In this document: piece after piece, positions 2,219 through 60,901 of the stretch | Layout of the letters: every line of letters starts with the position of its first letter | Position numbering within the stretch: position 1 is the first letter of the stretch | The notes under the pieces: generated by a model | Databases searched by the model: none | The model's input: the letters and a program-made list of their open reading frames with translations, nothing else | Told to the model about the DNA's origin: nothing | NCBI GenBank assembly: GCA_016699695.1 | Contig: CP065006.1 | Location: 2,494,562 to 2,558,561 of the forward strand | DNA from: Bacteroidota bacterium | Lineage (GTDB): Bacteria > Bacteroidota > Bacteroidia > Bacteroidales > UBA10428 | Direction of reading: 5' to 3' | DNA length: 64,000 nt | Translations under genes and position numbers: made by a program

Positions 2219-5143
2219 ATGCTTTTGTACAGACTGAAATTTCTGGTCATTATTCTAGCGGTTGTCTATCCGCAATGCTCCTTTGCACAAAAGGTAAAAA
2301 TCGAAACTTTGCTGGAGCAGGGAAACCGGTTGTTGAACAACACGGACAATGCACAATCCAGAGCCAAATACGATAGTGCATTCATCCTGGCTAAAGAGGG
2401 CAATTTTTCTCATTATCAGATTTTAAGTCATTATAAGTCCGGTTACAGTTATTTGCAGCAAGATATGGCATTTCTTGCTCTGGCGCATTTTTCCGATTTA
2501 TTGATGAGCAATAGTCCTGCCACAGCGGCCGACTCTGCCTTGTATGCACTTGCCAGCCTCGAAGAAATGGCAATTACACGAGTGGCAATTGTGTATCCCG
2601 AGAAATATTATCAATTGATAAGGGACTTTTCGTCTACTTTCCAGTTCCTTAAAGGAAGTGAACTAAGGAGAAAGGTATTTCTTTGTGGTGAAATCGAATT
2701 TCATCAGCTCAATTACGAACAGGCTCGTCTTCATTACCGAAAGGCACTCGAAATAAATTCGACCGATACCTATCTCGAAGAGATGCTTTGGTTCAAATTA
2801 AGTCTGGTTTATACCAAATTGTACGATACCGACAGGGCAAGAGAATGCCTCGATTTCCTTCTCTCCAGGAAATCAAAGTTTCTGAATCAATCGAAGATCT
2901 ATTACAATGCGGGTATGCTGCAATACAACAACCAACAGTTTACGGAGGCAATCAAATACCTTCAGAACGGTCTGCTGTTTACACTCGATCCAAATGCGCG
3001 AATATCGATGCTCCTTATTCTGGGGCACTCGTATATGGAACTCAAGAATTCCTCTAAAGCAAAAAGCTATTATAATCGTGCAATGCAGGAGTTAAATAAA
3101 AAAGGGGTATTGCAGGAATATAAACTCTCGGTACTTAATTCCTTCGGATGGTATTACAGTGAAATGAACGATGCTGATTCACTTCTCTATTATTACAAAA
3201 ATGCATCTGGTTTTGCGCTGGAAGACAATTCCTTGGCGGAGTACCAGGCTTATACAGTCAAGGGACTTAACGAATACTATTTAGCCAATGGGATGTATCA
3301 AAAATCTCTTGCAACGATTGAAAATTTTCTGTATGCCCGAAATAGCGAAAACTATCACTATTTGCAGAAACTCAATATTCAGTTGCTCAACCAAATATTG
3401 GCTGATGAGGCAACTGCCAATTTTAAGCTATGGATGGAAGATTCTGAAAAGATCAAACCACTTTTAAATTCATACAAGCTAATCAACCAGGTTGTAAGAA
3501 ACACTGTAAAATCTTACAATGCTTTAACAGAAGATAAAACAAAACTGGTATACCTTTCGCACTTAAGGTTTTACCTCGATGGGGCGTATACGATTGGATA
3601 TGAATTGTTTTCGACCACTGGAGAAAAAAAATACCTCGAGGAACTTATCCATCTTTCTGAATTGAACAAGGCTATTGTGCTTAAGGCAAACTCGCAAAGA
3701 ACCCAGGCAATTAAGCTTGTTGACATGCCTGAATCCTTGCGAAGTTTTGAGTCGGATCTCAGAAAAAAAATTATACGGCTCGAATATTACCTGGGCGGTC
3801 AAAAAGAAACACCTCTGGATTCGTTGTTGAGTAACGAAATCAGAATTCAACTAACTATTCTTCGTACCAGGTATGACTCCCTGAATCATATACTTGAGGA
3901 GAGATTTCCAGGGATACTTTCCAACAAGCTGAAGGAGAGGAATTTTGATTTATCACAATTGCAAGAGTCGTTGGAATCCAACCAATTGGTGATTAGTTAT
4001 TTTTTTTCCAATTACCAGGGTAAAAGATTATACATTCAGAGTATAAGCCAGGATACTCTGGCCGTTAGTGAAGTTAAAGATGTCGAAGGCTTGGGTCAGG
4101 ATATTCTTGAATTCAGAAGTCATTTGCTAGAAACCCATCCGGGATATTCGCGGGAGACTAATATGGATGAATTCGTTGATCGGTCATTTGGTATTTATGC
4201 TATTATCTTGGAGCCAATAAAGAAGCTGATTGGTGAAAAAAGGTTAGTGATTCTTCCCGATGCCGAATTGCATCTGGTACCATTCGATCTTCTCCTTACC
4301 CAAAAAGAAACTACAACCGGAAAGGGTTATAAGGATTTGCCTTATTTAATGAAAAGTTGCCCGATAACCTACCTAAATACCCTTGAACAGCTATTGGTTT
4401 CACCCGGGCAGATTTCCAGACGAAGTACGCTGGTAGGTTTTGCTCCTGAATATTCGAATAAGCTTGCAGATTCAAACTCTTTTTCCCTATGCCCATTACC
4501 CGGAGCCGAAGAAGAAATTTCTTATGCCAGAGGCTTTTTTAAGGGTCGGAAATTCAGTAAAACCAAAGCAAGTAAAGAAAATTTTTTCAAAAAAGCTCCC
4601 CAGGGCCAACTTCTTCATCTGGCATTGCATACGGAGGTTTCTGATATCGATCCTATGTATAGCCGAATGTACTTCAGCGGATCAGAAAGAGATTCGACTA
4701 ATCAAATGTTTAGTTATGAGCTTTATGGCAGGGCTTTCAATTCTAAACTTGTGGTGTTAAGCGGATGCAATACAGGTTCGGGAAACCTTGTTACTGGCGA
4801 AGGACTGATGAATATGTCAAGGGCTTTTTTCAATATGGGGGTGTTAAACCTTATAGTTACTCAATGGGCCGTAGCTGACAGGTCGAGTGCCCGTCTGATG
4901 TATTATTATTACCGCGCACTTTCGAAGGGTAGTTCCAGCGACAGGGCCTTGCAGCAGGCTAAAATTGATTTTTTAAACTACGAAGATCCCCTTTTTCACC
5001 ACCCATATTATTGGGCTGGGTACGTTTCTTTAGGTAATCCTGTAGTATATAAGGGGTTAAATATCCGATTAATTGGGTGGATCACCCCACTTGTTTTTTT
5101 GTTGTTGCTACTTCTTCTAATTCGCTGGCATCTGCGCAGGTAA
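2219..5143 (+). CDS. Signal-peptide TPR-repeat / CHAT domain (caspase-like) protein with a C-terminal membrane anchor
   Basis: 974 aa. N-terminal signal peptide MLLYRLKFLVIILAVVYPQCSFA/QK and a long TPR-like helical repeat region. CHAT His/Cys dyad context LHLALHTEV ... VLSGCNTGSG. C-terminal TM LIGWITPLVFLLLLLLLIRW. Confidence 0.85.
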   Translation: MLLYRLKFLVIILAVVYPQCSFAQKVKIETLLEQGNRLLNNTDNAQSRAKYDSAFILAKEGNFSHYQILSHYKSGYSYLQQDMAFLALAHFSDLLMSNSPATAADSALYALASLEEMAITRVAIVYPEKYYQLIRDFSSTFQFLKGSELRRKVFLCGEIEFHQLNYEQARLHYRKALEINSTDTYLEEMLWFKLSLVYTKLYDTDRARECLDFLLSRKSKFLNQSKIYYNAGMLQYNNQQFTEAIKYLQNGLLFTLDPNARISMLLILGHSYMELKNSSKAKSYYNRAMQELNKKGVLQEYKLSVLNSFGWYYSEMNDADSLLYYYKNASGFALEDNSLAEYQAYTVKGLNEYYLANGMYQKSLATIENFLYARNSENYHYLQKLNIQLLNQILADEATANFKLWMEDSEKIKPLLNSYKLINQVVRNTVKSYNALTEDKTKLVYLSHLRFYLDGAYTIGYELFSTTGEKKYLEELIHLSELNKAIVLKANSQRTQAIKLVDMPESLRSFESDLRKKIIRLEYYLGGQKETPLDSLLSNEIRIQLTILRTRYDSLNHILEERFPGILSNKLKERNFDLSQLQESLESNQLVISYFFSNYQGKRLYIQSISQDTLAVSEVKDVEGLGQDILEFRSHLLETHPGYSRETNMDEFVDRSFGIYAIILEPIKKLIGEKRLVILPDAELHLVPFDLLLTQKETTTGKGYKDLPYLMKSCPITYLNTLEQLLVSPGQISRRSTLVGFAPEYSNKLADSNSFSLCPLPGAEEEISYARGFFKGRKFSKTKASKENFFKKAPQGQLLHLALHTEVSDIDPMYSRMYFSGSERDSTNQMFSYELYGRAFNSKLVVLSGCNTGSGNLVTGEGLMNMSRAFFNMGVLNLIVTQWAVADRSSARLMYYYYRALSKGSSSDRALQQAKIDFLNYEDPLFHHPYYWAGYVSLGNPVVYKGLNIRLIGWITPLVFLLLLLLLIRWHLRR

Positions 5144-5162
5144 GGATTAATGCCTGGTGTTA

Positions 5163-5876
5163 TCAGAAATACCTGCTCAATATTTTTTCCGATCGTTCAG
5201 TGTAAAAATTGGTCGATGAAGAAAGGATATTTAAATAGGGTTTGGCAAGATAGGGCTTGTTAGCTTTTAGGTAGAGCAAACTTAAGTACCATTTGGCATG
5301 CATCGAGTAGGCATAATCTCCTTCCTGGTCTATTATCAATAGCAATTCTTCTGCTTGTTGCGGTTTGTTAAGCTCAAGTGCACAAAGTGCTTGGTAGAAA
5401 ATGCCGATAGAATGGTTACATACTTCTTTGTTGTAGTTTTCGAGCATGGAAAAGGCAAATTGATAATCGCCATTGGCATAAAGCTGAATTCCGAGGTCGA
5501 GTCCGCTCATTTGATTGGCATGTGCAGAACGCGTTGAAAGATCGATTGCATAGGGTGTATAGTATTTGTTAAAAGCTTTTTCTAATTTGTTGCCAGAAGT
5601 GAGTGCGACAATACTAAAAAGTAAAACCAAAGAGGCAGCAGCGGCTATCGCCATTCGTGTGAAATGCTTTCTTTTTGAGCCTTGGGTTATCAGGTGTCTT
5701 AATTGTTCTCTCAAGGAATTAGCATCTTCGTCTCGAATGCTTTCATTCACCTCACTCACAAAGGCAGCCTCTTGAGCCAGTTTTTCATTCTTTTTAAGTT
5801 CTGCTTTAAACACTTCTTTTTGGTCCTCGTGAAGGGTGCCATCAAGAAAATCTTCAATTGTTTCAAAATTTTTCAT
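5163..5876 (-). CDS. Putative anti-sigma factor: single-pass membrane protein with a periplasmic TPR-like domain
   Basis: 237 aa. Its start overlaps the stop of the upstream sigma gene by 14 nt. Charged cytoplasmic N-terminus, one TM (MAIAAAASLVLLFSIVALT), TPR-like C-terminal half. There is no zf-HC2 cysteine motif, so the function is inferred from position and topology. Confidence 0.55.
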   Translation of the reverse strand: MKNFETIEDFLDGTLHEDQKEVFKAELKKNEKLAQEAAFVSEVNESIRDEDANSLREQLRHLITQGSKRKHFTRMAIAAAASLVLLFSIVALTSGNKLEKAFNKYYTPYAIDLSTRSAHANQMSGLDLGIQLYANGDYQFAFSMLENYNKEVCNHSIGIFYQALCALELNKPQQAEELLLIIDQEGDYAYSMHAKWYLSLLYLKANKPYLAKPYLNILSSSTNFYTERSEKILSRYF

Positions 5877-6447
5877 AACCTAATTCCCGGAATTGATTTG
5901 AATTTCTAATTTTTTCTAACAACGCATTCTTGCAAGTATATTTTTTTTTCTTGGTATAATCGTCTGAGCCATAACCCATAAATCTGGTTATTTCGCTCAT
6001 TGGGGTTCCCTGGTAAAAGAGTCTCAATACTTTTTTGCAATCTTCCCCTAATTCATCAAATTTGCTACGATACAGTCTTAATCTATCGTTTTTTTCAATG
6101 GTATAAAGAATATTGCTGTGTTCATCAATTGTATCGTAACTTTCGGCATAAATAGGTTTCAACCTTCTGTTTTCAAGCTCTTTCAACCACATTAGTTTTG
6201 CAATGGAATATACAAATGTAGTAAGAGAACTGGTAAGTATAAACCCAGGTTCCTGAACCTTTCTGAACAGTACAATAATCGACTCTTGTATAATATCGTT
6301 GGCATCGTCCAGCGTACCGTTGTTGCAAATAACATAATGCTTTACCGGTTTCGAACACTGATCAAGAATATACTTCAATACCTTATTGTTCTTTTCTTGT
6401 AAGCCAAGTAGAAGGGATTCGTTGGTATATTCTTTTTTTGTGCCCAA
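5863..6447 (-). CDS. RNA polymerase sigma-70 family (ECF-type) sigma factor
   Basis: 194 aa. Region 2-like DIIQESIIVLFRKV...FVYSIAKLMWLKELENRR and region 4 HTH LRLFYQGTPMSEITRFMGY. Confidence 0.8.
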   Translation of the reverse strand: MGTKKEYTNESLLLGLQEKNNKVLKYILDQCSKPVKHYVICNNGTLDDANDIIQESIIVLFRKVQEPGFILTSSLTTFVYSIAKLMWLKELENRRLKPIYAESYDTIDEHSNILYTIEKNDRLRLYRSKFDELGEDCKKVLRLFYQGTPMSEITRFMGYGSDDYTKKKKYTCKNALLEKIRNSNQFRELGYEKF

Positions 6448-6522
6448 TGGATTAATTCTGAATAAGCAAAGAAAGTAACCTTTTTTAGGCTACTTTCTTC
6501 AATATGAGCTAAAAATAATACC

Positions 6523-9387
6523 TTATTTCGAATATTCCAGAGGAGAAGGACAGGTACATATCAAATTGCGGTCGCCATAGGCATCGTCGATGCGTGCTAC
6601 CGACGACCAAAATTTATTCTCTTTCAGCCAGGGTAAAGGAAAGGCAGCTTTCTCTCTTGAATACCTGTGACTCCATGCATCGGCGGTGACTTCATCTTGT
6701 GTGTGAGGGGCATTCACCAGTGGGTTGTCGGGGTTGCTGTCACCGGCAGCATCCTGTATTTCGTGGTAAATACTTACCAGTGCTTCAATAAAACGATCCA
6801 GCTCTTCTTTCGATTCACTTTCGGTAGGTTCTATCATGAGGGTGCCGTGCACAGGGAATGATAGGGTAGGTGCATGAAAGCCGTAATCAATAAGCCTTTT
6901 GGCTATGTCGGTTTCAGTGATTTGGCTCGAGGATTTAAATCCACGGCAATCGAGTATCATTTCATGAGCTACATAGCCTGTTGTACCCGTATACAGTACC
7001 GGATAGTATGGTTTTAATTTTGTCGCAAGGTAATTGGCATTTAATATGGCTATTTTCGTAGAAAGTGTCAAACCATCGCCACCAAGCAAATGGCAATATG
7101 CGTGCGAGATTGTCAAGATACTGGCACTGCCGTATGGAGCTGAAGCTACAGCCTTTATGCCGTTTACTCCACCCGTTTGTACAACGGGGTGTGTAGGCAG
7201 AAATTCTACAAGGTGGCTGGCAACGCAGATAGGCCCCATTCCGGGTCCGCCGCCACCATGCGGAATAGCAAAAGTTTTATGCAGGTTCAAATGGCAAACG
7301 TCGGCTCCAATTGCGGCCGGACTTGTTAGCCCAACTTGAGCGTTCATATTGGCACCATCCATATATACCTGACCTCCATGCTGGTGAACCAGTTTGATCA
7401 TCTCTTTGATGGTAGGCTCGAAAACACCATGCGTTGAAGGATAGGTAATCATAATACCTGCCAGCTTTTCGCTGTACTCCAGCACTCTGTTACTTAAATC
7501 GTTTTGGTCAATGTTTCCCTGTTCGTCGCACTTTACAACAATTACTTCCATACCTGCCATTACTGCGCTGGCAGGGTTGGTGCCGTGTGCCGAAGAAGGG
7601 ATTAGCATGATGTTTCGATACCCCTGTTTATTGGCCTGATGGTATTTCCGAATTACAAGCAATCCTGCATATTCACCGGCTGCTCCGGAGTTAGGTTGAA
7701 ATGAAATGGCTTCGAATCCGGTAATTTTTAGCAACATTTTGCCAAGTTCGTGAAACAACTGTTGGTATCCTTCGGTCTGGTCGATGGGGGCAAAGGGATG
7801 GATTTCGCCAAATTCCGGCCAGCTCAAGGGAAGCATTTCTACGGCTGCATTCAGTTTCATAGTGCAGGAGCCAAGCGATATCATAGAATGAGTGAGCGAA
7901 ATATCGCGACGCTCGAGTTTTTTGATGTATCGCATCAATTGGGTTTCGGAACGGTATTGGTTAAAGACAGGCTGCTGCATGTAATTGTCTGTGCGCAGGA
8001 ATTCTTTCGAAAGCCAGGTTTTATTTTCGAATTCCTGAATATTTCCGAACTTCTTCTTCTTAGTGGCAGCAAATACCTCCAACAGGTTGTTCAGATCGGC
8101 TATACTGGTGGTTTCATCGAGACTTATACCCACATCTCCATTTTCAAAATAGCGAAGGTTTATTTCTTGTTCAAGGGCATGAATCCTTATGTCTTTTTGG
8201 GTAATTCCTTGTGTAAGCCTTATCCGCAAAGTATCGAAATAGTTAGTGTATACGTTGATGAAACCCAGCTCAATAAGTCTGGAGCAAAGGGTGCCGGCGG
8301 CCTGGTGGCAATGAAGGGCAATACGTTTAAGACCTTCGGGCCCATGGTATATTGTGTACATCCCAGCCATGGTGGCCAAGAGTGCCTGTGCAGTACATAT
8401 ATTCGAAGTAGCTCTCTCTCTCTTAATGTGTTGTTCGCGCGTTTGAAGCGCCATGCGTAAGGCTGTTTTTCCACTTTTATCTTTCGACACCCCAATAATT
8501 CTTCCGGGCATAAAGCGTTTAAATTCATCTTTTGTTGCAAAATAGGCAGCATGTGGACCTCCAAAACCCATCGGGATACCAAATCGCTGTGTCGAACCCA
8601 CTGCCACATCAGCACCTAAATCAGCAGGCGAACGCAGCAATACAAGGCTCATGCAGTCTGCAGCCAGCACCACGCGTGCTCCAAAAGCATGCATCTGGTT
8701 GATAAAATCTTCGTAATTAATTACCTCACCATCGCCCGAGGGGTATTGAAGAAAAGCCCCAAATAGTTTTGGTGTTGGCGTGAAGGTCTGGAAGTTGCCT
8801 ACAATTATTTTAATACCGAGGGGTTCTGCCCTGCTTTCGAGCACAGCCAGGTTTTGCGGAAATATATTTTTATCGACAAAAAATTCATTGTAATCTTCCT
8901 GCATCATTTTTCGTGGCCGTGCGTTATGGAGCATAATCATGGCTTCGGCAACGGCAGTAGCTTCGTCGAGCAAGGAGGCATTGGCTATTTCAAAACCGGT
9001 AAGTTCAGTAATGGCAGTTTGAAAATTTAACAATGCTTCCAGCCGGCCTTGCGATATCTCTGCCTGGTAAGGTGTGTAAGATGTGTACCAGCTTGGATTC
9101 TCGAGAATATTTCGCTGTATGGCCGCAGGGAAAACGGTGTGGTGGTATCCGGTGCCTATGTATGATTTGAATACTTTATTCTTCGAAGCAAGTTTTTTTA
9201 TGCTTTTAAAATACTCGTATTCGTTTACACCTTTAGGTAAGTCTAGCGGGCCTTTTAAACGAATAGTGGCGGGTATGATTTTTTCAATGAGTTGGTCGAG
9301 AGACTTAAGACCCATTTCACCAAGCATTTGGTCTACATCCCATTCACGTGGCCCTAAATGCCGATGAACAAAATTTTCTGCTGCCAT
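6523..9387 (-). CDS. gcvP: Glycine dehydrogenase (aminomethyl-transferring), single-chain P-protein
   Basis: 954 aa full-length P-protein. PLP-lysine motif HLNLHKTFAIPHGGGGPG. Confidence 0.95.
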   Translation of the reverse strand: MAAENFVHRHLGPREWDVDQMLGEMGLKSLDQLIEKIIPATIRLKGPLDLPKGVNEYEYFKSIKKLASKNKVFKSYIGTGYHHTVFPAAIQRNILENPSWYTSYTPYQAEISQGRLEALLNFQTAITELTGFEIANASLLDEATAVAEAMIMLHNARPRKMMQEDYNEFFVDKNIFPQNLAVLESRAEPLGIKIIVGNFQTFTPTPKLFGAFLQYPSGDGEVINYEDFINQMHAFGARVVLAADCMSLVLLRSPADLGADVAVGSTQRFGIPMGFGGPHAAYFATKDEFKRFMPGRIIGVSKDKSGKTALRMALQTREQHIKRERATSNICTAQALLATMAGMYTIYHGPEGLKRIALHCHQAAGTLCSRLIELGFINVYTNYFDTLRIRLTQGITQKDIRIHALEQEINLRYFENGDVGISLDETTSIADLNNLLEVFAATKKKKFGNIQEFENKTWLSKEFLRTDNYMQQPVFNQYRSETQLMRYIKKLERRDISLTHSMISLGSCTMKLNAAVEMLPLSWPEFGEIHPFAPIDQTEGYQQLFHELGKMLLKITGFEAISFQPNSGAAGEYAGLLVIRKYHQANKQGYRNIMLIPSSAHGTNPASAVMAGMEVIVVKCDEQGNIDQNDLSNRVLEYSEKLAGIMITYPSTHGVFEPTIKEMIKLVHQHGGQVYMDGANMNAQVGLTSPAAIGADVCHLNLHKTFAIPHGGGGPGMGPICVASHLVEFLPTHPVVQTGGVNGIKAVASAPYGSASILTISHAYCHLLGGDGLTLSTKIAILNANYLATKLKPYYPVLYTGTTGYVAHEMILDCRGFKSSSQITETDIAKRLIDYGFHAPTLSFPVHGTLMIEPTESESKEELDRFIEALVSIYHEIQDAAGDSNPDNPLVNAPHTQDEVTADAWSHRYSREKAAFPLPWLKENKFWSSVARIDDAYGDRNLICTCPSPLEYSK

Positions 9388-9430
9388 TTTAGTTTTATCA
9401 GTTATATGTCGACAAATTTTTTAATTATTC

Positions 9431-10069
9431 TCAGATGAGGAAAGGATTTGTATCATGTTCTGCTCCAATTGTGGTGCTTGGGCCATGTCCGCTGTAAACA
9501 TTCGTTTCGGGTGGCAGGGTAAGTAGTTTTTGTTTAATGCCACTAATCAAACTATCGTAATCTCCTCCAGGCAAATCGGTTCGTCCGATAGAACTTCTAA
9601 ATAAAATATCGCCCACAATAACAAATTTATCCGCCGCCGAATAAAATGCCAATCCACCAGGTGAATGACCAGGTATATGCATCACCTGCAATGTATGCTT
9701 TCCGATTTCAATCCGGTCCGACTCATCAATGTATTGGTTAATTACCGGAGTTTCGTCAAAAGCGAGACCAAACATTTCGGCAGTAATCCGGGCCGAAGAA
9801 AGCAACAACTCCTCATTACGATGCATTTTGAAAGGGATTTTAAGATCCTTTACCATGCGGCTTACACCAAGGAGGTGATCCACATGCCCATGTGTATTTA
9901 CAACAGCGGTGAGTTTTATTTTTTTTTCCTTCAGATAAGCCTTCAGTTGTGCGTATTCCGTTTCTGTTTCGAAAGAGGGGTCAATTATAATACCTGTACC
10001 AGTTTCATCGGTAAGCAGATAGGTATTTACCTGAAAACTATTGAAAACAAAATATTTGAGTGTAATCAT
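9431..10069 (-). CDS. MBL-fold metallo-hydrolase (glyoxalase II-like)
   Basis: 212 aa with the HGHVDH metal-binding motif and downstream His/Asp ligands. Confidence 0.85.
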   Translation of the reverse strand: MITLKYFVFNSFQVNTYLLTDETGTGIIIDPSFETETEYAQLKAYLKEKKIKLTAVVNTHGHVDHLLGVSRMVKDLKIPFKMHRNEELLLSSARITAEMFGLAFDETPVINQYIDESDRIEIGKHTLQVMHIPGHSPGGLAFYSAADKFVIVGDILFRSSIGRTDLPGGDYDSLISGIKQKLLTLPPETNVYSGHGPSTTIGAEHDTNPFLI

Positions 10070-12921: not shown

Positions 12922-13521
12922 TCAGAGCTGACCATTTTCAATTAGCATCACAATCTCATTAATCAACTTATCTTCTCCCTCGGCATCGAAAGTTGTTTTC
13001 AGGTTATGTCCAAACACACGGGCAAGGGTTTGCCAGAAAAAAGCCGAGAAGTTCCCTTTGAGTTCTTTTAATAAGTCATATGATGTCTCACCGATTTCCC
13101 TATCAATCAATTTAATCAGAATGGTACCCTGCGAGATTGTGAGTTTTTTTAGTTCACCCTCAAATTCTTCTTTCAACTCTACTTCAACCTGGTCCATGTA
13201 TTTCCTTTTTTCCTTTTCAGTATTTAAAGTTGAAAGTTTCACAGCTACTTCATCGTACTTGTTTTTTGCCATTTTTGCGTAAGGGTAAACTTTTTTCACA
13301 TTTCGCACCAATTTCTGGTACCTGCGCATATCTCTTGGCGAGTTAAAGGTGCGCATTGGAAGTATGTATACCTCTTTAATAGAAGCAACCAGAATGGTAT
13401 CTCCATCGACAACTATTCCGTAGAGTACATTCTCACCCTTTGCAGCCAGTGTGTCCTGTGCATGCAGGTTTGCACCAAATAATAAAATAAAGGATAATAT
13501 GCTAAGGATTTTTTGCATCAT
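12922..13521 (-). CDS. DUF4294-like secreted protein
   Basis: 199 aa with a signal peptide (MMQKILSILSFILLFGANLHA/Q). Conserved-looking block KLVRNVKKVYPYAK...LTISQGTILIKLIDRE...FFWQTLARVFG. The family name is recalled, not searched. Confidence 0.6.
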   Translation of the reverse strand: MMQKILSILSFILLFGANLHAQDTLAAKGENVLYGIVVDGDTILVASIKEVYILPMRTFNSPRDMRRYQKLVRNVKKVYPYAKMAKNKYDEVAVKLSTLNTEKEKRKYMDQVEVELKEEFEGELKKLTISQGTILIKLIDREIGETSYDLLKELKGNFSAFFWQTLARVFGHNLKTTFDAEGEDKLINEIVMLIENGQL

Positions 13522-13676
13522 ACCGGTATATCACAATATTCATACCATTCGCAAAACGCATGTCTAAAAAAAAGGACAAATTTTCGAGATTTTGTTGCTC
13601 AATGCTTAAACGAAATTATAAAATTTATGTTCTACCTTTGATATGATTAGGGTGAAAAATTTAAGCTGGCGAATGA

Positions 13677-34660: not shown

Positions 34661-35167
34661 TTAGTAAGCGTAATCTTGTAATTTCTCCATCAACTTTTTG
34701 CGGGTAAAAAAGATGCGACTTTTCACTGTGCCAATCTTAAGGTCGAGCTCATCTGCAATTTCTTTGTATTTAAAACCTTGGGTGTGCATTAAAAAAGGGA
34801 TACGAAATTCGTCTTCCAATTCGCTGATGGCTTTGTTTATCTCCTTGGCTGATATTTCGCTTTCGGGCGTTTCGGAACGGCTTTCGCGGTTCAGGTTAAG
34901 GTAGAACAAATCGTCGGTGTTGTCAAAAGTGGTGTTTGCTTTCGATGCCCTGCGGTAATTGTTGATGAAGGTGTTCTTCATGATGGTAAAGGTCCATGCC
35001 TTCAGGTTGGTATTGTCGATGTATTTATCGCGGTATGAAATTGCTTTAGCAAAGGTTTCCTGCAGCAAATCTTTGGCATCTTCTTTATTCGAAGTAAGGC
35101 TTAGAGCAAAACGCTGCAAGTTGTCGCTCAGGCTTGTCAATTGATAATTAAATTCTATGGCTGTCAT
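34661..35167 (-). CDS. ECF-type RNA polymerase sigma-70 family factor
   Basis: 168 aa, region 2 (DAKDLLQETFAKAISYRDKY...AWTFTIMKNTFINNYRR) and region 4 (GFKYKEIADELDLKIGTVKSRIF). Confidence 0.85.
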   Translation of the reverse strand: MTAIEFNYQLTSLSDNLQRFALSLTSNKEDAKDLLQETFAKAISYRDKYIDNTNLKAWTFTIMKNTFINNYRRASKANTTFDNTDDLFYLNLNRESRSETPESEISAKEINKAISELEDEFRIPFLMHTQGFKYKEIADELDLKIGTVKSRIFFTRKKLMEKLQDYAY

Positions 35168-51206: not shown

Positions 51207-53195
51207 ATGAGGTTATTTGCATTGCTCTTTATTTATGGCTTCTTTTTATTAGCGGCAGCGCCTGTCAATGCCCAGAACAAAGCCTATATCAAAGCATATG
51301 AGGCATACAATGCCGGTGAGTACAACAAGGCCATCGATTTATTTAAAGAGGCTTATGAGCGCATTACCGATAAAGAAGAGAAATCGAAAATAGTTTTTCA
51401 CATTGCCGAATGTTACCGTCGCACCAATAATCCGAAACAAGCTGCGCTATGGTACAGCAAGGCAATCTCTAAAGACAACTCAAACCCTATTGCCTACCTG
51501 TATTTTGCCGATATGCTTAAAATGAATGGGGATTACGAAGAAGCAAAGGTGCAATACAATGCCTATAAGGAGCTTGTTCCTTCCGACTCAAGAGGTACCG
51601 AAGGAATTAAATCCTGCAACATGGCTATCGAGTGGATGGAATACCCCAACGGCTATAATGTAACTGAAATGCGCTTCATTAATTCCAAGTTCAACGATTT
51701 TTCACCAGCCTTTTATACTGAAGATTATCGTGGAATAGTTTTTACCTCTTCGAGAGAAGAGGTAACCGGTAAAAAGGATCATGGTGGCACCGGACAAGGA
51801 TTCACCGATATTTTTGTAACTACACAGGACCGCAAAGGAAAATGGAGCACACCAGTTCCTCTGGGAGCAGAAGTAAATACCGATTTTGAGGAAGGAAGCC
51901 CTGTATTAAACAACAACTATTCGGTAATGTATTTTTCACGTTGCCAGGTTAGCAGTAACAAAACTTTAGGTTGCGCAATTTATGAGGCATCATTAAAGAA
52001 CGAAGAATGGACGAAAGTTAAATCGCTCGAGTTGGCTGACGATAGCGTGCTTATTACCCACCCTGCAATTTCTGCCGATGAATTGTCTCTTTTTTTTGTT
52101 TCTGATATGAAGGGAAGTATGGTCGGAGACAATGGCAAACCCAGTACTGATATCTGGATGGTAAGCCGTAGCTCGATAGACGATAAATGGAGTGAACCGG
52201 TCAATTTAGGTGAACGCATTAATACCAATGCTACAGAAGCCTTTCCTTATATGCACCCCGATGGTACGCTTTATTTTTCATCCAACGGCCATCCTGGTAT
52301 GGGGGGGCTGGATATTTTTAAGGCCAAAAAGAGCACAGACGGCAAATGGGAAATAGAAAATATGCGTTATCCCATCAACAGCTCATCAGATGATTTTGGT
52401 ATCTGTTTCGAACGTGATCGGGAAGCTGGGTACCTGAGTTCGACCCGAAAGGGAAAGGTAGACGATATCTATGCATTTGTCCTGCCTCCTCTGAAATTTT
52501 CAATTACCGGAGTTGTAAAAGACGAAAAAACCGATAACCCTATCAATGGCGCTAAGGTTAAATCGATTGGTAGTGATGGACTTACTGTCGAAGCCACTAC
52601 CTCATCCGATGGTTCGTTCAAGTTTATGCTGAAACCAGCTACCGATTATGTGTTTGTGGCCAAGCAGAATGGATACCTGCAGGGCAAAGAACGAGAAACC
52701 ACCAAGAATCTGGAAGGTAGTACCGATTTTACTACCGTGATTTATCTGGCTCCTATCGACAAACCAATTACTGTTGAAAACATATTCTTCGACTTTGCAA
52801 GTGCCGATTTGCGGCCGGAATCTATGGTCTCGCTTGATAAGCTGGTTGAAACCCTGAATGATAACCCTACCATCATTATCGAGCTAAGCTCCCATACCGA
52901 CTCACGTGGTAACGATCAGTTTAATCTTGATTTATCGCAACAAAGAGCACAATCGGTAGTGAATTACCTTATCTCGAAAAATATCAAACCAGAACGTCTT
53001 GTGGCAAAAGGTTATGGCGAAACTCAACCCAAAGTAGTCGATCGCCGCGATAACGAGGCTTATCCCTTCTTAAACGAAGGCCAGGTAATTACCGATGAAC
53101 TTATTTCTACTATAAGCGATGAGGATTTGCAGGAAGTAGCTCATTTTCTCAATCGCCGTACCGAGTTTAAGGTTTTGCGTACCGATTTTAAATAG
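51207..53195 (+). CDS. OmpA family protein with TPR, TolB-like beta-propeller and CarboxypepD_reg-like domains
   Basis: 662 aa with a signal peptide. C-terminal OmpA motif NIFFDFASADL...SSHTDSRGNDQFNLDLSQQRAQSVVNYL. Confidence 0.85.
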   Translation: MRLFALLFIYGFFLLAAAPVNAQNKAYIKAYEAYNAGEYNKAIDLFKEAYERITDKEEKSKIVFHIAECYRRTNNPKQAALWYSKAISKDNSNPIAYLYFADMLKMNGDYEEAKVQYNAYKELVPSDSRGTEGIKSCNMAIEWMEYPNGYNVTEMRFINSKFNDFSPAFYTEDYRGIVFTSSREEVTGKKDHGGTGQGFTDIFVTTQDRKGKWSTPVPLGAEVNTDFEEGSPVLNNNYSVMYFSRCQVSSNKTLGCAIYEASLKNEEWTKVKSLELADDSVLITHPAISADELSLFFVSDMKGSMVGDNGKPSTDIWMVSRSSIDDKWSEPVNLGERINTNATEAFPYMHPDGTLYFSSNGHPGMGGLDIFKAKKSTDGKWEIENMRYPINSSSDDFGICFERDREAGYLSSTRKGKVDDIYAFVLPPLKFSITGVVKDEKTDNPINGAKVKSIGSDGLTVEATTSSDGSFKFMLKPATDYVFVAKQNGYLQGKERETTKNLEGSTDFTTVIYLAPIDKPITVENIFFDFASADLRPESMVSLDKLVETLNDNPTIIIELSSHTDSRGNDQFNLDLSQQRAQSVVNYLISKNIKPERLVAKGYGETQPKVVDRRDNEAYPFLNEGQVITDELISTISDEDLQEVAHFLNRRTEFKVLRTDFK

Positions 53196-53218: not shown

Positions 53219-55366
53219 CTAAAAGGAATAGCTTAAAACAACAAAAAGCTTTTGTGTGTAATCTATTATTCCTTTGTCTGCAAACCTGTTAAGGGTGGTA
53301 ACCGGATAATGGATTTCGGAATTGAGCACATTCGTGCAACGAAGGTTTAGCATCATATTCTTTACAGGTAAATCGCTGAGAATTATGCCTGCATCCAGAA
53401 ACCCCGAAGCTTTTGTTTGTTCACCCAGCCAGGTGTTGGTTCTATGATCGTAATCGGAATACATAGCACCGATGGCATTTCCGGTTACATATAATGCAAT
53501 TTTTGGAGCAAAAGCATAGGATATAGTCATGTATCCACAATAGTCCGGTGAATAGGGAACGGGCACTTTTGTCAGGCCTGGCGTTTCGTTTTCCGAGTTT
53601 TGCACTAATCCACTTAAAATAATTGTCATGTTTCTGATGGGTTCTGCTCTTAACGAGAATTCGCCCCCTGTAGTTTTAATCTTTCCTTTGTTCGAAGTAT
53701 AGTAAACAGTGATGCTGTCAGAGACACCAAGAAAATATTGAGATATGAGGTTGGAAAGATCGTTATAGAAAAGACTGAGTTGTAAAGAGAATTTCTCGAA
53801 ATAGATGCCAGAGTAGTTTATTTCTAGGGTTTTAATTTCCGAGGGAACTAAAAGAGGAAAATTCGCCAGTGTATCCTGGCTGTCGGAGAAAAGTATATCG
53901 GCGAGCTGTCCCATAGGTGGATAGCGTAATGCTTCTCCATAAAGCATTTTTATGGTATGCTTTTCGAAAGGCTTGATAAGAATTGCCAGGCTTGGAATAG
54001 TATGGATTTTTTCTTCCTTGTACGAATTTTCATAATGTTCCCTGCCATTGCTTATCAGAGGATCGCCGCCTGAAACTTCGTAATTGTAGGGAACCATATA
54101 TTGCAACCGTATTCCTGCAACCAGAGTTACAGGCTTGAAGGGTGAATAACTAAGTTGTGTATAACCCGCATAGTCAATCATGCGAGAATCGATTTCCAGC
54201 CTCGAAAGATGGTTACCATAAGGAATACCCCAGACGGCTTCCATTTCGGCAGGGTTGGTGGCATGAAAAACATTTCGTTGTACCAATCCGAATGTAATGT
54301 CGAGCTGAGGAGTTGGTTGTATGAATGATAACAATTCGAGCTCGTACGCATCGGAATTATATCCAAATGTGAGGTAAGAGTTTTTTTCATTTACAAAATA
54401 GTGCGACATGGCACTGGTAGTAAGGTAGCTAAATTTTAGTTTGGCCGATATCAGGTCGTTAAAGCTATGCTGATACGAAGCTCCAAAATTGGTGCTATGT
54501 CTTTTCGAGGGCGAATACTCCACGGTCGGTTGCACTAAAAATCCCCCTCGCTCCACCTCGCTGTGCGCCATGTCTATATTCAAACCCTTAAAGGCTGCAT
54601 TCATATTAAAATATACTTGTTTGTCTTTGAGCATTCCTTCTGTTGTCGATTGTGGATTTAAACCCCAGGCTGAAAGTTTGGAAGGGTCCGACATCATTTT
54701 ATTGTATGGTACATTCATGCCCTCAGTTTGATATACTGATCCGGTGATGCCGATCTGCAACTCTTCGGCAGTGTGATTGAGTTGAGTGGTGAATTTTTTT
54801 GTTTGATTACTACCTATCATGAGGGATGCAATATTTTCAGAATTCGATTCCTGGTCGTCTGTAATAATATTTATGACGCCAAAAAAAGCTCCGCTACCAT
54901 ATAATACCGACATGGGGCCCCGTATAACTTCAATACGGTCAATGGCCTCCACAGGCACTGCAACCTTGGTAAGCAGGTATTCGTTGTAAACACCTTCTAC
55001 CTGATTTATTCCATTCACTAAAATGATAATGTTGTCTGAACTGGTATATCCCCTTACTCCAATGTTAATCCGGCCTCTCACATGATAATCGTCCCAAAGG
55101 TATAGACCTGGCACTTGGTTAAGCACTTCTTTAAGTGTGGTGTACCCGAACTTTTGTATATCCTGGCGTGTAATAATTACCACACTGGCAGGTATGCTTT
55201 CAATTTTTTGTTCTTTTTTTCCAGCAGCTTGTACCTTGATTGCAGCCAGGTCGTTAAGCGATAGATCGAATATCTGGCTTAACATGAGGCTGTCTGTATC
55301 CTGGCTTTTGCCTGCTGTTTGAATATATAGCAGGATAAGAATCAGAAGCAAATGTTGGAGTTTCAT
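53219..55366 (-). CDS. TonB-dependent receptor
   Basis: 715 aa. Signal peptide, plug domain (IEVIRGPMSVLYGSGAFFGVINIIT), and a long beta-barrel ending in ...VLSYSF. Confidence 0.85.
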   Translation of the reverse strand: MKLQHLLLILILLYIQTAGKSQDTDSLMLSQIFDLSLNDLAAIKVQAAGKKEQKIESIPASVVIITRQDIQKFGYTTLKEVLNQVPGLYLWDDYHVRGRINIGVRGYTSSDNIIILVNGINQVEGVYNEYLLTKVAVPVEAIDRIEVIRGPMSVLYGSGAFFGVINIITDDQESNSENIASLMIGSNQTKKFTTQLNHTAEELQIGITGSVYQTEGMNVPYNKMMSDPSKLSAWGLNPQSTTEGMLKDKQVYFNMNAAFKGLNIDMAHSEVERGGFLVQPTVEYSPSKRHSTNFGASYQHSFNDLISAKLKFSYLTTSAMSHYFVNEKNSYLTFGYNSDAYELELLSFIQPTPQLDITFGLVQRNVFHATNPAEMEAVWGIPYGNHLSRLEIDSRMIDYAGYTQLSYSPFKPVTLVAGIRLQYMVPYNYEVSGGDPLISNGREHYENSYKEEKIHTIPSLAILIKPFEKHTIKMLYGEALRYPPMGQLADILFSDSQDTLANFPLLVPSEIKTLEINYSGIYFEKFSLQLSLFYNDLSNLISQYFLGVSDSITVYYTSNKGKIKTTGGEFSLRAEPIRNMTIILSGLVQNSENETPGLTKVPVPYSPDYCGYMTISYAFAPKIALYVTGNAIGAMYSDYDHRTNTWLGEQTKASGFLDAGIILSDLPVKNMMLNLRCTNVLNSEIHYPVTTLNRFADKGIIDYTQKLFVVLSYSF

Positions 55367-59672: not shown

Positions 59673-60302
59673 TTAGCTGCGTTTTTCGAAAAGGTGAATC
59701 AACTTTTTTGTTTCGAAAAAAGGATCGGTAAAATATTCTGAGAGATCGATTGCAACATACCTTTCTGCAAAAGACATCAATTCTTCCTCAAGGTTGCCAC
59801 CTTTTAAGTAGAGAATGCCATTGGGAACCTCATGCTTCCAATCGGAAGAAATGTTTTTTCGCACCCAGCTATAAAAATCAGGCATATTGGTAACCGCCCG
59901 GCTCACAATGAAATCGAATTTTTGATTGACCTCTTCTGCCCGAATTACTTTAGCTGCGCAATTGTTTAGCCCAATTTTTTCGATAATGTCGTTGACAACC
60001 TTAATCTTTTTCGCTATGGAATCGATGAGCAGAAAATTGGATTGTGGGAACATGATGGCAAGGGGGATGCCCGGGAACCCACCACCTGTGCCCACATCCA
60101 TAATTTTGCTTACCGGTAAGAATTGAATGTGTTTGGCTATTGCCAGACTATGCAATACATGCCGGACATACAATTGGTCGATGTCTTTTCGCGATACCAA
60201 GTTAATCTGGGCATTCCAAAAATGATACAAGTCGGAAAGTTGCGCAAATTGCTGTTTTTGATGTGCAGAAAGACCAGGAAAATAACGAAGAATCTCCTCC
60301 AT
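59673..60302 (-). CDS. rsmG: 16S rRNA (guanine527-N7)-methyltransferase
   Basis: 209 aa, DVGTGGGFPGIPLAI SAM motif. The ATG overlaps the upstream stop (TAATG). Confidence 0.9.
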   Translation of the reverse strand: MEEILRYFPGLSAHQKQQFAQLSDLYHFWNAQINLVSRKDIDQLYVRHVLHSLAIAKHIQFLPVSKIMDVGTGGGFPGIPLAIMFPQSNFLLIDSIAKKIKVVNDIIEKIGLNNCAAKVIRAEEVNQKFDFIVSRAVTNMPDFYSWVRKNISSDWKHEVPNGILYLKGGNLEEELMSFAERYVAIDLSEYFTDPFFETKKLIHLFEKRS

Positions 60303-60901
60303 TAAATGTGATGGGTTGTATTACGCAGGATATTGAAAAGTAGTTCGCGCGCCCTGAATAGTTGGGCTTTCACAGTTCCGATCGGCAACTCAAGTTCTTC
60401 TGATATTTCTTCGTAAGAGTATTCGTTGAAGTAGCGAAGCTCGATTAGTTTCCGATAGCGCGGTTTCAGGCGAGAAACTAGTGATCGCATAATTTTAAGC
60501 TTCTGCTCTTTGATCATCGTTTCTTCCGGATCTAACACGGAGGCCATAATATCAGGCGACGACTTTTCGTTGTCTTCGTCGGTAATATCCAGCGAAACAG
60601 TGTTGGCCTTCTTTTTTCGAATAAAATCGATGCAGTTGTTGGTGGCAATTTTAAATAGCCAGGTGCTGAAAGCAAAATTTGGGGTGTATTGTTCAAGGTT
60701 TTTAAACGCCTTGCCAAAAGCTTCGATGGTAAGGTCTTCGGCATCGCTGGCATTGTTTACCATTTTTAACAGCATAAAGTAGATGGCGTCTTTATACCTG
60801 TCGAGCAGCTCGGTATAAGCCTTCTGTTCGCCTTGTATGGCTCGCTGCACCAGCAAAAAATCACGCTGTGCCTTTTCGGAAAGGTTGTTTGCTACTTCCA
60901 T
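60302..60901 (-). CDS. ECF-type RNA polymerase sigma-70 family factor
   Basis: 199 aa, region 2 (DAEDLTIEAFGKAF...FSTWLFKIATNNCIDFIRKKK) and region 4 (YSYEEISEELELPIGTVKAQLFRAR). Confidence 0.85.
   Translation of the reverse strand: MEVANNLSEKAQRDFLLVQRAIQGEQKAYTELLDRYKDAIYFMLLKMVNNASDAEDLTIEAFGKAFKNLEQYTPNFAFSTWLFKIATNNCIDFIRKKKANTVSLDITDEDNEKSSPDIMASVLDPEETMIKEQKLKIMRSLVSRLKPRYRKLIELRYFNEYSYEEISEELELPIGTVKAQLFRARELLFNILRNTTHHI

Follow-up and report, generated by a model that had tools for sequence, protein, structure and literature searches.

A membrane-anchored TPR-CHAT protein linked to a divergent ECF-like sigma/anti-sigma-like pair in Bacteroidota: a candidate split variant of known CHAT-sigma systems

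Introduction

Pairs of a sigma factor of the extracytoplasmic function (ECF) type and its anti-sigma factor constitute a major bacterial signalling device, and for most groups of them both the signal and the first protease are unknown. In classical regulated intramembrane proteolysis, as exerted by DegS/RseP on RseA and by PrsW/RasP on RsiW, a single-pass anti-sigma factor which is co-transcribed with its ECF sigma factor receives a periplasmic site-1 cut near the membrane, and this cut licenses a site-2 protease. The site-1 proteases known from these systems are serine proteases or metalloproteases, and none of them is a dedicated partner whose gene accompanies the sigma operon. Proteins composed of tetratricopeptide repeats (TPR) and a caspase-like CHAT domain have also been connected with sigma factors. 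DdvA of Myxococcus xanthus is an anti-sigma factor which carries its own periplasmic TPR-CHAT region and was proposed to be its own site-1 protease; self-cleavage was suggested to take place in trans within a dimer while autoproteolysis was not observed, and DdvA-like fusions are reported only in Myxococcota and one Comamonas (PMC11506125). In the craspase, the cytoplasmic TPR-CHAT protein Csx29 cleaves Csx30, which binds and inhibits the ECF-like sigma factor CASP-sigma (PMC10028731). Here we describe a three-gene module within a 64-kb stretch of DNA from a Bacteroidota metagenome-assembled genome, the whole of which is referred to as the window. It consists of a gene for a 974-aa TPR-CHAT protein with export and membrane anchor signals and, convergent to it, of a gene pair encoding a divergent ECF-like sigma factor (194 aa) and a single-pass anti-sigma-like protein (237 aa).

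The module resembles the DdvA/DdvS system in several respects. In both, an ECF-type sigma factor (a putative one in the window) is held, or in the window would be held, by a single-pass anti-sigma or anti-sigma-like protein, and a periplasmic TPR-CHAT region with an intact His/Cys dyad (predicted in the window) is genetically tied to the sigma/anti-sigma pair. In both, the CHAT domain is proposed as site-1 protease acting on a juxtamembrane linker before an RseP-type cleavage, and the folds of the two TPR-CHAT regions are alike (Foldseek E=1.5e-11). DdvA, however, unites anti-sigma domain, transmembrane segment and TPR-CHAT in one polypeptide, whereas the window encodes anti-sigma-like protein and protease candidate in separate genes. 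The same holds for the related loci described below, where both are always separate and usually convergent (54 and 24 linked loci in two scans); among the 150 best relatives of the anti-sigma-like protein there is no fusion with CHAT, the maximum length being about 515 aa. DdvA furthermore carries a CHCC zinc site, while the N-terminus of the window protein is devoid of a zinc motif. DdvS controls a CBASS/CRISPR defence island, in contrast to the window module, whose neighbours are ddl, gcvP and other housekeeping genes. A known defence system was considered for the module and rejected, as PADLOC gave no hits for its three proteins. Because it is not a single polypeptide and lacks a defence context, the module stands outside the DdvA type, and by analogy it appears to work like a split DdvA.

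With the type III-E craspase (Cas7-11 and Csx29; PDB 8EEY) the module has in common a TPR-CHAT protein which would act in trans and a separate, putative ECF sigma inhibitor as its partner. Csx29 is the best structural match of the window CHAT protein (E=1.9e-16). Yet the craspase is cytoplasmic, is activated when it binds a target under guidance by RNA and belongs to a CRISPR locus, whereas the window protein bears export and anchor signals; Csx30 is not a membrane protein, unlike the single-pass protein of the window. The immediate neighbours ddl and gcvP provide no cas or CRISPR context, a dedicated search for which was not made over the 64 kb, and in a close relative (L001) all genes called within 10 kb of the module are housekeeping genes. 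Compared to the classical systems, the candidate site-1 protease of the window would belong to the clan CD cysteine proteases, would carry a TPR array as sensor and would be devoted to one sigma pair. Separase, finally, likewise combines a TPR-like superhelix with a CHAT domain, and its cleavage after Arg parallels a conserved Arg in a loop of the anti-sigma-like protein. It is eukaryotic, cytoplasmic or nuclear, much larger and without membrane anchor, in contrast to the anchored window protein; a securin-like inhibitor in the window system would be speculative.

An earlier note, made from the sequence alone, had suggested that the CHAT protein activates the sigma factor by a route not described experimentally. 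In view of DdvA (PMC11506125) and of Csx29/Csx30 (PMC10028731) this was overstated, although the split membrane arrangement was not found in the literature searched, nor did this literature describe any linkage of CHAT genes with ECF pairs in Bacteroidota. The main text of the ECF classification (PMC7826278) does not mention a CHAT-linked group. The module is thus not without precedent: we regard it as a widespread, uncharacterised, split and trans-acting variant of known CHAT-sigma themes.

Results

Layout of the module

The features of the module are as follows (coordinates of the window; AF2, AlphaFold2 model; pLDDT, predicted local distance difference test score).

2219..5143, + strand: TPR-CHAT gene, 974 aa (open reading frame; Pfam CHAT with E=2.4e-48 and TPR families; AF2; Foldseek)
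2219..2287, + strand: aa 1-23, predicted Sec signal peptide with cleavage following SFA (sequence layout)
2282..3973, + strand: all-alpha TPR superhelix, about aa 22-585 (AF2 secondary structure; Pfam TPR_1/2/8/12)
3983..5038, + strand: CHAT caspase-like domain, aa 589-940 (Pfam; alpha/beta fold from aa 589 in the model)
4628-4630, + strand: catalytic His804 (invariant in orthologues)
4766-4768, + strand: catalytic Cys850 (invariant in orthologues)
5063..5137, + strand: aa 949-973, predicted transmembrane anchor at the C-terminus, with RWHLRR behind it as basic cytoplasmic tail (model helix)
5144..5162, no strand: tail-to-tail spacer of 19 nt without terminator (stop codon to stop codon)
5163..5876, - strand: anti-sigma-like gene, 237 aa, single-pass (open reading frame; family kept in 78 of 80 sigma loci)
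5166..5504, - strand: predicted periplasmic TPR domain of 3.5 repeats, aa 125-237 (AF2 pLDDT of about 90)
5526..5531, - strand: Arg116-Ser117 codons, candidate cleavage site (juxtamembrane motif; predicted flexible loop)
5863..6447, - strand: divergent ECF-like sigma gene, 194 aa, TTG start at 6447 (open reading frame; family profile)
6450..6482, - strand: promoter-like element AAGGTTACTTTCTTTGCTTATTCAGAATTAATC (position weight matrix score of 26.9 bits; directly upstream of the sigma gene)

Sigma and anti-sigma-like genes share 14 nt (ATGAAAAATTTTGA). A scan for terminator-like hairpins was negative at the junction between the CHAT and the anti-sigma-like gene, the sole candidates lying within the CHAT coding region at chance frequency. 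In related convergent pairs of these two genes (n=55) the median spacing is -4 nt, with overlapping 3' ends in 33 of the 55. The ddl gene ends 98 nt upstream of the CHAT gene, and gcvP (glycine dehydrogenase, 6523-9387, - strand) lies 75 nt upstream of the sigma gene in the same direction. Proteins identical to those of the module are labelled “hypothetical protein IPM71_10550” and “CHAT domain-containing protein” at NCBI.

The earlier note had delineated the same three reading frames with the same coordinates, the convergent 19-bp gap free of a terminator hairpin and the 14-nt overlap, all of which were reproduced. Its account of the 974-aa protein (signal peptide, TPR repeats, CHAT dyad, one C-terminal transmembrane segment) is borne out by Pfam, sequence and model, and the topology which it deduced, with a protease domain outside the cytoplasm tethered to the inner membrane, is supported by the predicted signal peptide and anchor. 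Likewise, AF2 and Foldseek confirm the TPR-like nature of the extracytoplasmic half of the 237-aa protein. Profile searches matched CHAT and TPR as anticipated, but left Sigma70_r2 below its cut-off and gave no match to a region-4 model. The proposed ECF-type sigma factor is therefore ECF-like but atypical, as it scores below the Pfam and NCBIfam cut-offs.

Linkage of the three genes

For a scan from the sigma side, one genome per species was searched with an alignment of the sigma family. The best 80 of the 169 relatives' loci were taken and processed by calling and clustering of open reading frames, the test for CHAT being limited to the 66 loci with at least 2.5 kb of downstream sequence. 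The anti-sigma-like gene follows the sigma gene in 78 of the 80 loci, and a CHAT gene is present in 54 of the 66. A wider neighbourhood including gcvP, an MBL-fold hydrolase, a PCMT methyltransferase, a sugar transferase and others is conserved in 52 of the 80 loci (L004-L065). Hence, this synteny is in part explained by plain inheritance within Bacteroidales, and the adjacency of gcvP probably reflects the lineage rather than function. Nevertheless, the CHAT gene is kept in 13 of 17 loci with unrelated flanks, i.e. without the lineage-typical gcvP neighbour, and its far flank is occupied by at least 20 different gene families.

The gene order varies as well. Most common is the arrangement found in the window, sigma and anti-sigma-like genes being followed by a convergent CHAT gene. 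Two loci (L104 and L105) contain all three genes in this order as single operons with overlaps of 1-4 nt, CHAT precedes the pair in Spirosoma fluviale (L061), divergent modules occur in L074 and L102, and in L072 the CHAT gene converges on the sigma gene with the anti-sigma-like gene beyond it. Linkage extends to Saprospiraceae, Chitinophagales and Cytophagales. The unrelated flanks, the variety of far-flank families and the rearrangements of gene order settle the linkage as real. In the 12 loci lacking CHAT, an alternative shared partner was looked for and rejected as the neighbours (GcpE, a lactonase, glycoside hydrolases, M43 peptidases, DUF362 and others) are unrelated.

In a reciprocal scan, 24 aligned CHAT orthologues served as query against metagenome contigs, and the 80 closest relatives were assessed. 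Where the CHAT protein has a C-terminal anchor, a sigma/anti-sigma pair adjoins it in 24 of 34 cases; where the anchor is absent, a sigma gene is nearby in 2 of 31, both weak generic ECF matches without anti-sigma-like gene. Hence, the association is specific to the membrane-anchored form (Fisher p=1e-7, calculated from sequences which are not phylogenetically independent). The two unanchored relatives (L123 1625-3121 and L153 8271-8858) stand near generic ECF-like sigma genes (E of about 1e-10) devoid of the anti-sigma family, and there may be other CHAT-sigma associations beyond the anchored family. Word-indexed homologue searches, which returned six relatives of the anti-sigma-like protein and mostly generic TPR-CHAT proteins, were misleading and were replaced by the locus scans and a full HMMER scan.

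We consider it very probable that sigma, anti-sigma-like and CHAT genes are functionally coupled. That the three belong together had been suspected in the earlier note and agrees with their synteny across orders and families of Bacteroidota, which persists after rearrangement and in unrelated flanks. The note had named lack of synteny in related genomes and loss of the dyad residues in orthologues among the outcomes that would refute it; both were checked, and neither was observed.

The exported TPR-CHAT protein

The Pfam CHAT model (PF12770) matches aa 659-940 of the 974-aa protein with 165.5 bits (cut-off 24; E=2.4e-48), in addition to TPR families. The dyad resides in the motifs LHLALHTEV (His804) and VLSGCNTGSG (Cys850). 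None of the 48 full-length orthologues departs from His800, His804 and Cys850, and the hydrophobic C-terminal helix with its basic tail is likewise kept in every one of them. In 46 of them a hydrophobic segment occupies the N-terminus, the start of the other two being truncated or mis-called. In the window protein the N-terminus, MLLYRLKFLVIILAVVYPQCSFA followed by QK after the predicted cut, shows the n/h/c layout of a cleavable signal peptide and contains no lipobox.

The AF2 model has a mean pLDDT of 81 and a predicted template modelling score of 0.77. A sequence search against the PDB retrieved designed TPR proteins only, so that structure comparison was needed. Foldseek places Csx29 at the top (E=1.9e-16), followed by separase (4.7e-13) and DdvA (PDB 8ROT). 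Intact dyad and fold make the protein a candidate protease. Because it carries a signal peptide and a C-terminal anchor with a basic tail, the CHAT domain is predicted to reside outside the cytoplasm, and since merely about nine residues separate it from the membrane helix in the model, it would be held close to the inner membrane. The modelled position is thus supported as the one which the site-1 protease of a single-pass anti-sigma factor would need to occupy.

The anti-sigma-like protein and a candidate cleavage site

The 237-aa protein is divided into a predicted cytoplasmic part (aa 1-70), a transmembrane segment (aa 75-94) and a periplasmic part (aa 95-237), its N-in/C-out orientation following from the basic stretch KRKHFTR on the N-terminal side of the transmembrane segment. 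No Pfam or other curated family matched it, while a HMMER profile scan assigns 1,156 clusters at 50% identity to its family (E<=1e-30). Best conserved within this family are an N-terminal motif (IE.YLDG.L...E...FE..L..D..L), the TPR helices and a juxtamembrane motif (LF..YY.PY..D...RS). The segment IE.YLDG.L...E...FE..L resembles helix 1 of the class I anti-sigma domain, a cytoplasmic bundle of helices, about 70-90 aa in size, which binds sigma-2 and sigma-4. Residues 1-70 contain neither a HxxxCxxC zinc motif nor any other Cys or His motif; non-zinc anti-sigma domains exist, and the absence of the motif excludes only the zinc-binding (ZAS) subgroup.

In the AF2 model (overall pLDDT of 74) four helices are predicted within aa 2-68. 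The transmembrane segment is followed by a short juxtamembrane helix, a low-confidence loop (115-121) and the well-defined TPR domain. For the latter, Foldseek lists the peptide-binding TPR2A domain of Hop and IpgC as well as the TPR domain of YbgF with target-normalised TM scores of 0.66-0.85; the E values range from 0.01 to 0.03, none being below 0.001.

The equivalent of Arg116 is present in 68 of 70 family members. It is located in the predicted flexible loop between juxtamembrane helix and TPR domain, about 21 residues outside the membrane. Cleavage after Arg is a property of clan CD proteases such as the metacaspases and gingipain R. Separase, too, cuts after Arg (PMC11506125). As the residue is near-invariant, lies in a flexible loop and would be within reach of a membrane-pinned protease, we infer the bond between Arg116 and Ser117 as candidate site-1 position.

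Some relatives harbour doubled forms of the protein of about 500 aa (L051 8569-10068, L054 8569-10068, L090 2602-4092, P0092, P0094 and others), in which the family profile covers the C-terminal half and extra partial matches precede it. A TPR protein of 22% identity (P0005) has neither a sigma nor a CHAT gene in its vicinity and was rejected as an orthologue.

The divergent sigma factor and the element upstream of its gene

The NCBIfam model TIGR02937 aligns with aa 24-153 of the 194-aa protein at E=9.8e-10, its 38.3 bits being below the cut-off of 42.9, and Pfam Sigma70_r2 reaches 13.6 bits compared to a cut-off of 24. A profile built from 31 family members retrieves ECF sigma factors from the PDB through their sigma-2 part (E=1.7e-5). 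Aligned by hhalign with a canonical ECF sigma factor of the window, it is collinear over sigma-2 and sigma-4 (probability 58%, E=1e-4). The protein is thus best described as a putative atypical ECF-like sigma factor whose sigma-2 and sigma-4 regions become recognisable only with the family profile. As the ordinary ECF sigma factors of the window easily pass the models, its divergence is genuine.

The two canonical genes (60302-60901 and 34661-35167, both on the - strand), whose products pass the Pfam models of region 2 and region 4, have no obvious adjoining anti-sigma gene; gidB/rsmG and GTP cyclohydrolase I are found downstream. In the predicted sigma-4 region of the divergent protein, Cys137 and Cys172 (motifs EDCKKVL and Y.CK) are invariant in the 31 family members, which is unusual for ECF sigma factors.

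The promoter-like element upstream of the sigma gene conforms to the family consensus A-GGGTTACTTTTT-N11-GwATTAA (w = A/T). In the 64-kb window the position weight matrix scores no other site at 10 bits or more. The element precedes the sigma gene in 57 related loci, and there are seven other matches in the 2 Mb scanned. It ends 0-14 nt ahead of the called sigma start codon. It could therefore be the promoter of a leaderless mRNA, or contain a -7-type box with a short leader; should it act as a promoter, the sigma mRNA would have no leader or hardly any. The CHAT gene is not preceded by the element, neither in the window nor in 45 orthologous loci, which argues against CHAT as a simple member of the regulon. 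In L090 (4926-5040, + strand) a second copy (18.3 bits) points away from the sigma gene. Behind it come about 70 nt and then a hairpin which is rich in GC and has a T-run; no open reading frame is present, and a small RNA could be encoded.

Small peptide genes in related loci

About 30 related loci contain, beside the CHAT gene, a gene for a small acidic Pro-rich or GG-leader peptide. The GG-leader reading frames, which are divergent from the CHAT start, were located through a few extra copies of the sigma-type element. L049 has two copies (13167-13379 and 13388-13585), followed by an ABC transporter whose N-terminus is C39-peptidase-like judging from its sequence. One or two copies each are found in L054 (13232-13390), L051 (13233 to the end), L072 (5861-6013) and L084 (170-262 and 3-95). 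A GG-leader-type frame without the element occurs in L087 (1034-1258), and another one lies beside the sigma gene in L082 (7583-7747). Several of these frames are preceded by the sigma-type element (17-30 bits), and the peptide cores are acidic or Pro-rich. Curated models give sub-threshold matches: TIGR04149, a Bacteroidota GG-leader model, for two peptides (E=0.013 and 0.075) and NF047798, a bacteriocin-leader model, for the L084 peptide (E=0.0024). In L071 (13707-15224) a HlyD-family protein (Pfam) and an ABC-type gene are encoded nearby.

At the corresponding position, Bacteroidales loci have a reading frame of 27-45 aa with a short leader and a tail rich in Pro, Asp and Glu, e.g. MTSKLLYLKRMPGPDPDDDDPPPPPPGLGK. 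Sites within L015-L060 are, for instance, L018 12503-12595, L036 6750-6863, L048 5452-5577 and L056 12669-12788. When 1.0 Mb of genome loci was scanned blindly for this composition in all six frames, each of the 25 hits fell inside the module. Of these, 24 are divergent from the CHAT gene and lie no more than 700 nt upstream of its start. The remaining one (L005 1373-1462) is located between the anti-sigma-like and the CHAT gene, as is a weaker one in L014 (about 9400-9500). No curated family matches this peptide. In two close pairs, differences concentrate at third codon positions and the frame diverges faster than its own upstream region, these being small numbers. A sigma-type element upstream of the Pro/Asp/Glu peptide genes was looked for and is absent, other, clade-specific motifs being found there.

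In the more distant metagenomic loci the strict scan detected no Pro/Asp/Glu frame, although upon looser inspection L087 showed a GG-type peptide and L091 a weak Pro-rich one. The 64-kb window itself contains neither type of small frame, even under relaxed criteria; with ddl ending so closely upstream of CHAT, it has no room for a peptide gene there, and the same applies to its closest relative, L004. The peptide genes suggest that an exported acidic peptide is part of the system in many lineages, which for the window is context only.

Discussion

The following model builds on the observed linkage of the genes, the signals of topology, the conservation of catalytic residues and of the Arg in the loop, and the fold. 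In the resting state, the cytoplasmic N-terminus of the co-translated 237-aa protein would hold the sigma factor inactive at the inner membrane. The CHAT domain would be placed on the outer face of this membrane by its C-terminal helix, with the TPR superhelix projecting into the periplasm. A periplasmic cue, presumably read by the TPR array of the protease, by the small TPR domain of the anti-sigma factor or by both, would activate the His804/Cys850 site. Upon contact, perhaps by the TPR-TPR docking which the earlier note envisaged, the CHAT domain would cut the anti-sigma factor in trans within its juxtamembrane loop, most likely after Arg116, and intramembrane and cytoplasmic proteolysis of the remaining stub would free the sigma factor. 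The putative regulon would comprise at least the sigma operon itself, transcribed from the upstream element. That CHAT is in this direction and by this mechanism the dedicated sensor and site-1 protease of the anti-sigma factor is, in our estimation, possible if somewhat short of probable.

Several observations weigh against such a mechanism. The sigma factor scores below the curated Pfam and NCBIfam thresholds, the fold of the N-terminal anti-sigma domain is predicted at modest confidence (pLDDT 42-81), and Foldseek with the model of the 237-aa protein matched its TPR part only and no anti-sigma domain. Bacteroidales genomes with an entirely conserved gcvP neighbourhood account for much of the raw synteny. 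Of the 66 sigma/anti-sigma loci, 12 lack an adjacent CHAT gene, and of the 34 CHAT relatives with an anchor, 10 have no sigma pair beside them. Sigma/anti-sigma loci without adjacent CHAT nonetheless keep the loop Arg; either the genomes concerned encode CHAT at another place, or the residue has a different role. Finally, dyad mutants of DdvA showed no phenotype under the conditions tested (PMC11506125).

The linkage evidence would equally fit a partnership in which the anti-sigma factor is not the substrate. CHAT might process another envelope target, e.g. a peptide that is exported or a protein that is damaged or foreign, and the TPR domain of the anti-sigma factor might sense CHAT, its product or its occupancy, being held, for instance, as securin is by separase; the sigma factor would then be released through a conformational change or by another site-1 protease. 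The retention of the loop Arg where CHAT is not adjacent is in line with this, as are the peptide genes beside CHAT in about 30 relatives and the resemblance of the anti-sigma TPR domain to three-repeat modules binding short peptides, namely Hop TPR2A, which recognises MEEVD, and IpgC. The window, however, is devoid of such a peptide gene, no alternative substrate is conserved throughout the family, and a membrane-pinned CHAT domain favours a substrate close to the membrane. On balance, we judge this explanation rather unlikely. A related idea is that of a peptide-gated switch, in which the peptides would be ligands or securin-like pseudosubstrate inhibitors for the periplasmic TPRs and would gate cleavage by CHAT within a self-reinforcing circuit. 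It would amount to quorum or kin recognition acting on an ECF sigma factor in Bacteroidota, and in the lineage of the window the peptide gene would have to be located elsewhere in the genome or to have been lost; taken as a whole, this scenario seems unlikely to us.

Still less probable is the assumption that CHAT is an output, i.e. an envelope protease under control of the sigma factor, e.g. through antisense or transcriptional interference from overlapping convergent transcripts. The 3' ends are indeed tightly convergent, frequently overlapping and not separated by a terminator, and ECF regulons often include neighbouring genes. Yet the sigma-type element precedes CHAT neither in the window nor in 45 orthologous loci, the translationally coupled three-gene operons of L104 and L105 fit partners better than a regulator with its target, and the specificity for membrane-anchored CHAT points to action at the membrane. 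That there is no functional link at all, adjacency being the inherited gene order of one lineage, is highly improbable. While the conserved wider neighbourhood in 52 of the 80 loci would agree with inheritance, this explanation is largely refuted by linkage which persists in 13 of 17 unrelated flanks, through five gene orders with operon fusions among them, and in Saprospiraceae, Chitinophagales and Cytophagales, by the variable far flank of CHAT, and by the reciprocal association which is specific to anchored CHAT.

The idea of CHAT as a first protease was raised by DdvA, where it could not be tested, a single protein being both protease and substrate and its trigger not being known. With protease candidate and anti-sigma factor encoded separately, a CHAT-based site-1 mechanism becomes directly testable, since cleavage can be reconstituted and dyad and loop Arg are open to independent mutation, while neighbouring genes in related loci supply candidate peptide ligands. 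The module is widespread in environmental Bacteroidota of several orders, where its proteins are annotated as no more than “hypothetical protein” or “CHAT domain-containing protein”. If the proposed mechanism is correct, it would assign to a separase/caspase-type protease an extracytoplasmic role in bacteria outside phage defence.

Other features of the window

Elsewhere in the window, a gene at 51207-53195 (+ strand) encodes a 662-aa protein with TPR, PD40, CarboxypepD_reg and OmpA domains, which is convergent with a gene for a TonB-dependent receptor (53219-55366, - strand). The 662-aa protein gives weak matches to the profiles of the CHAT and the anti-sigma family, which come about through its TPRs only.

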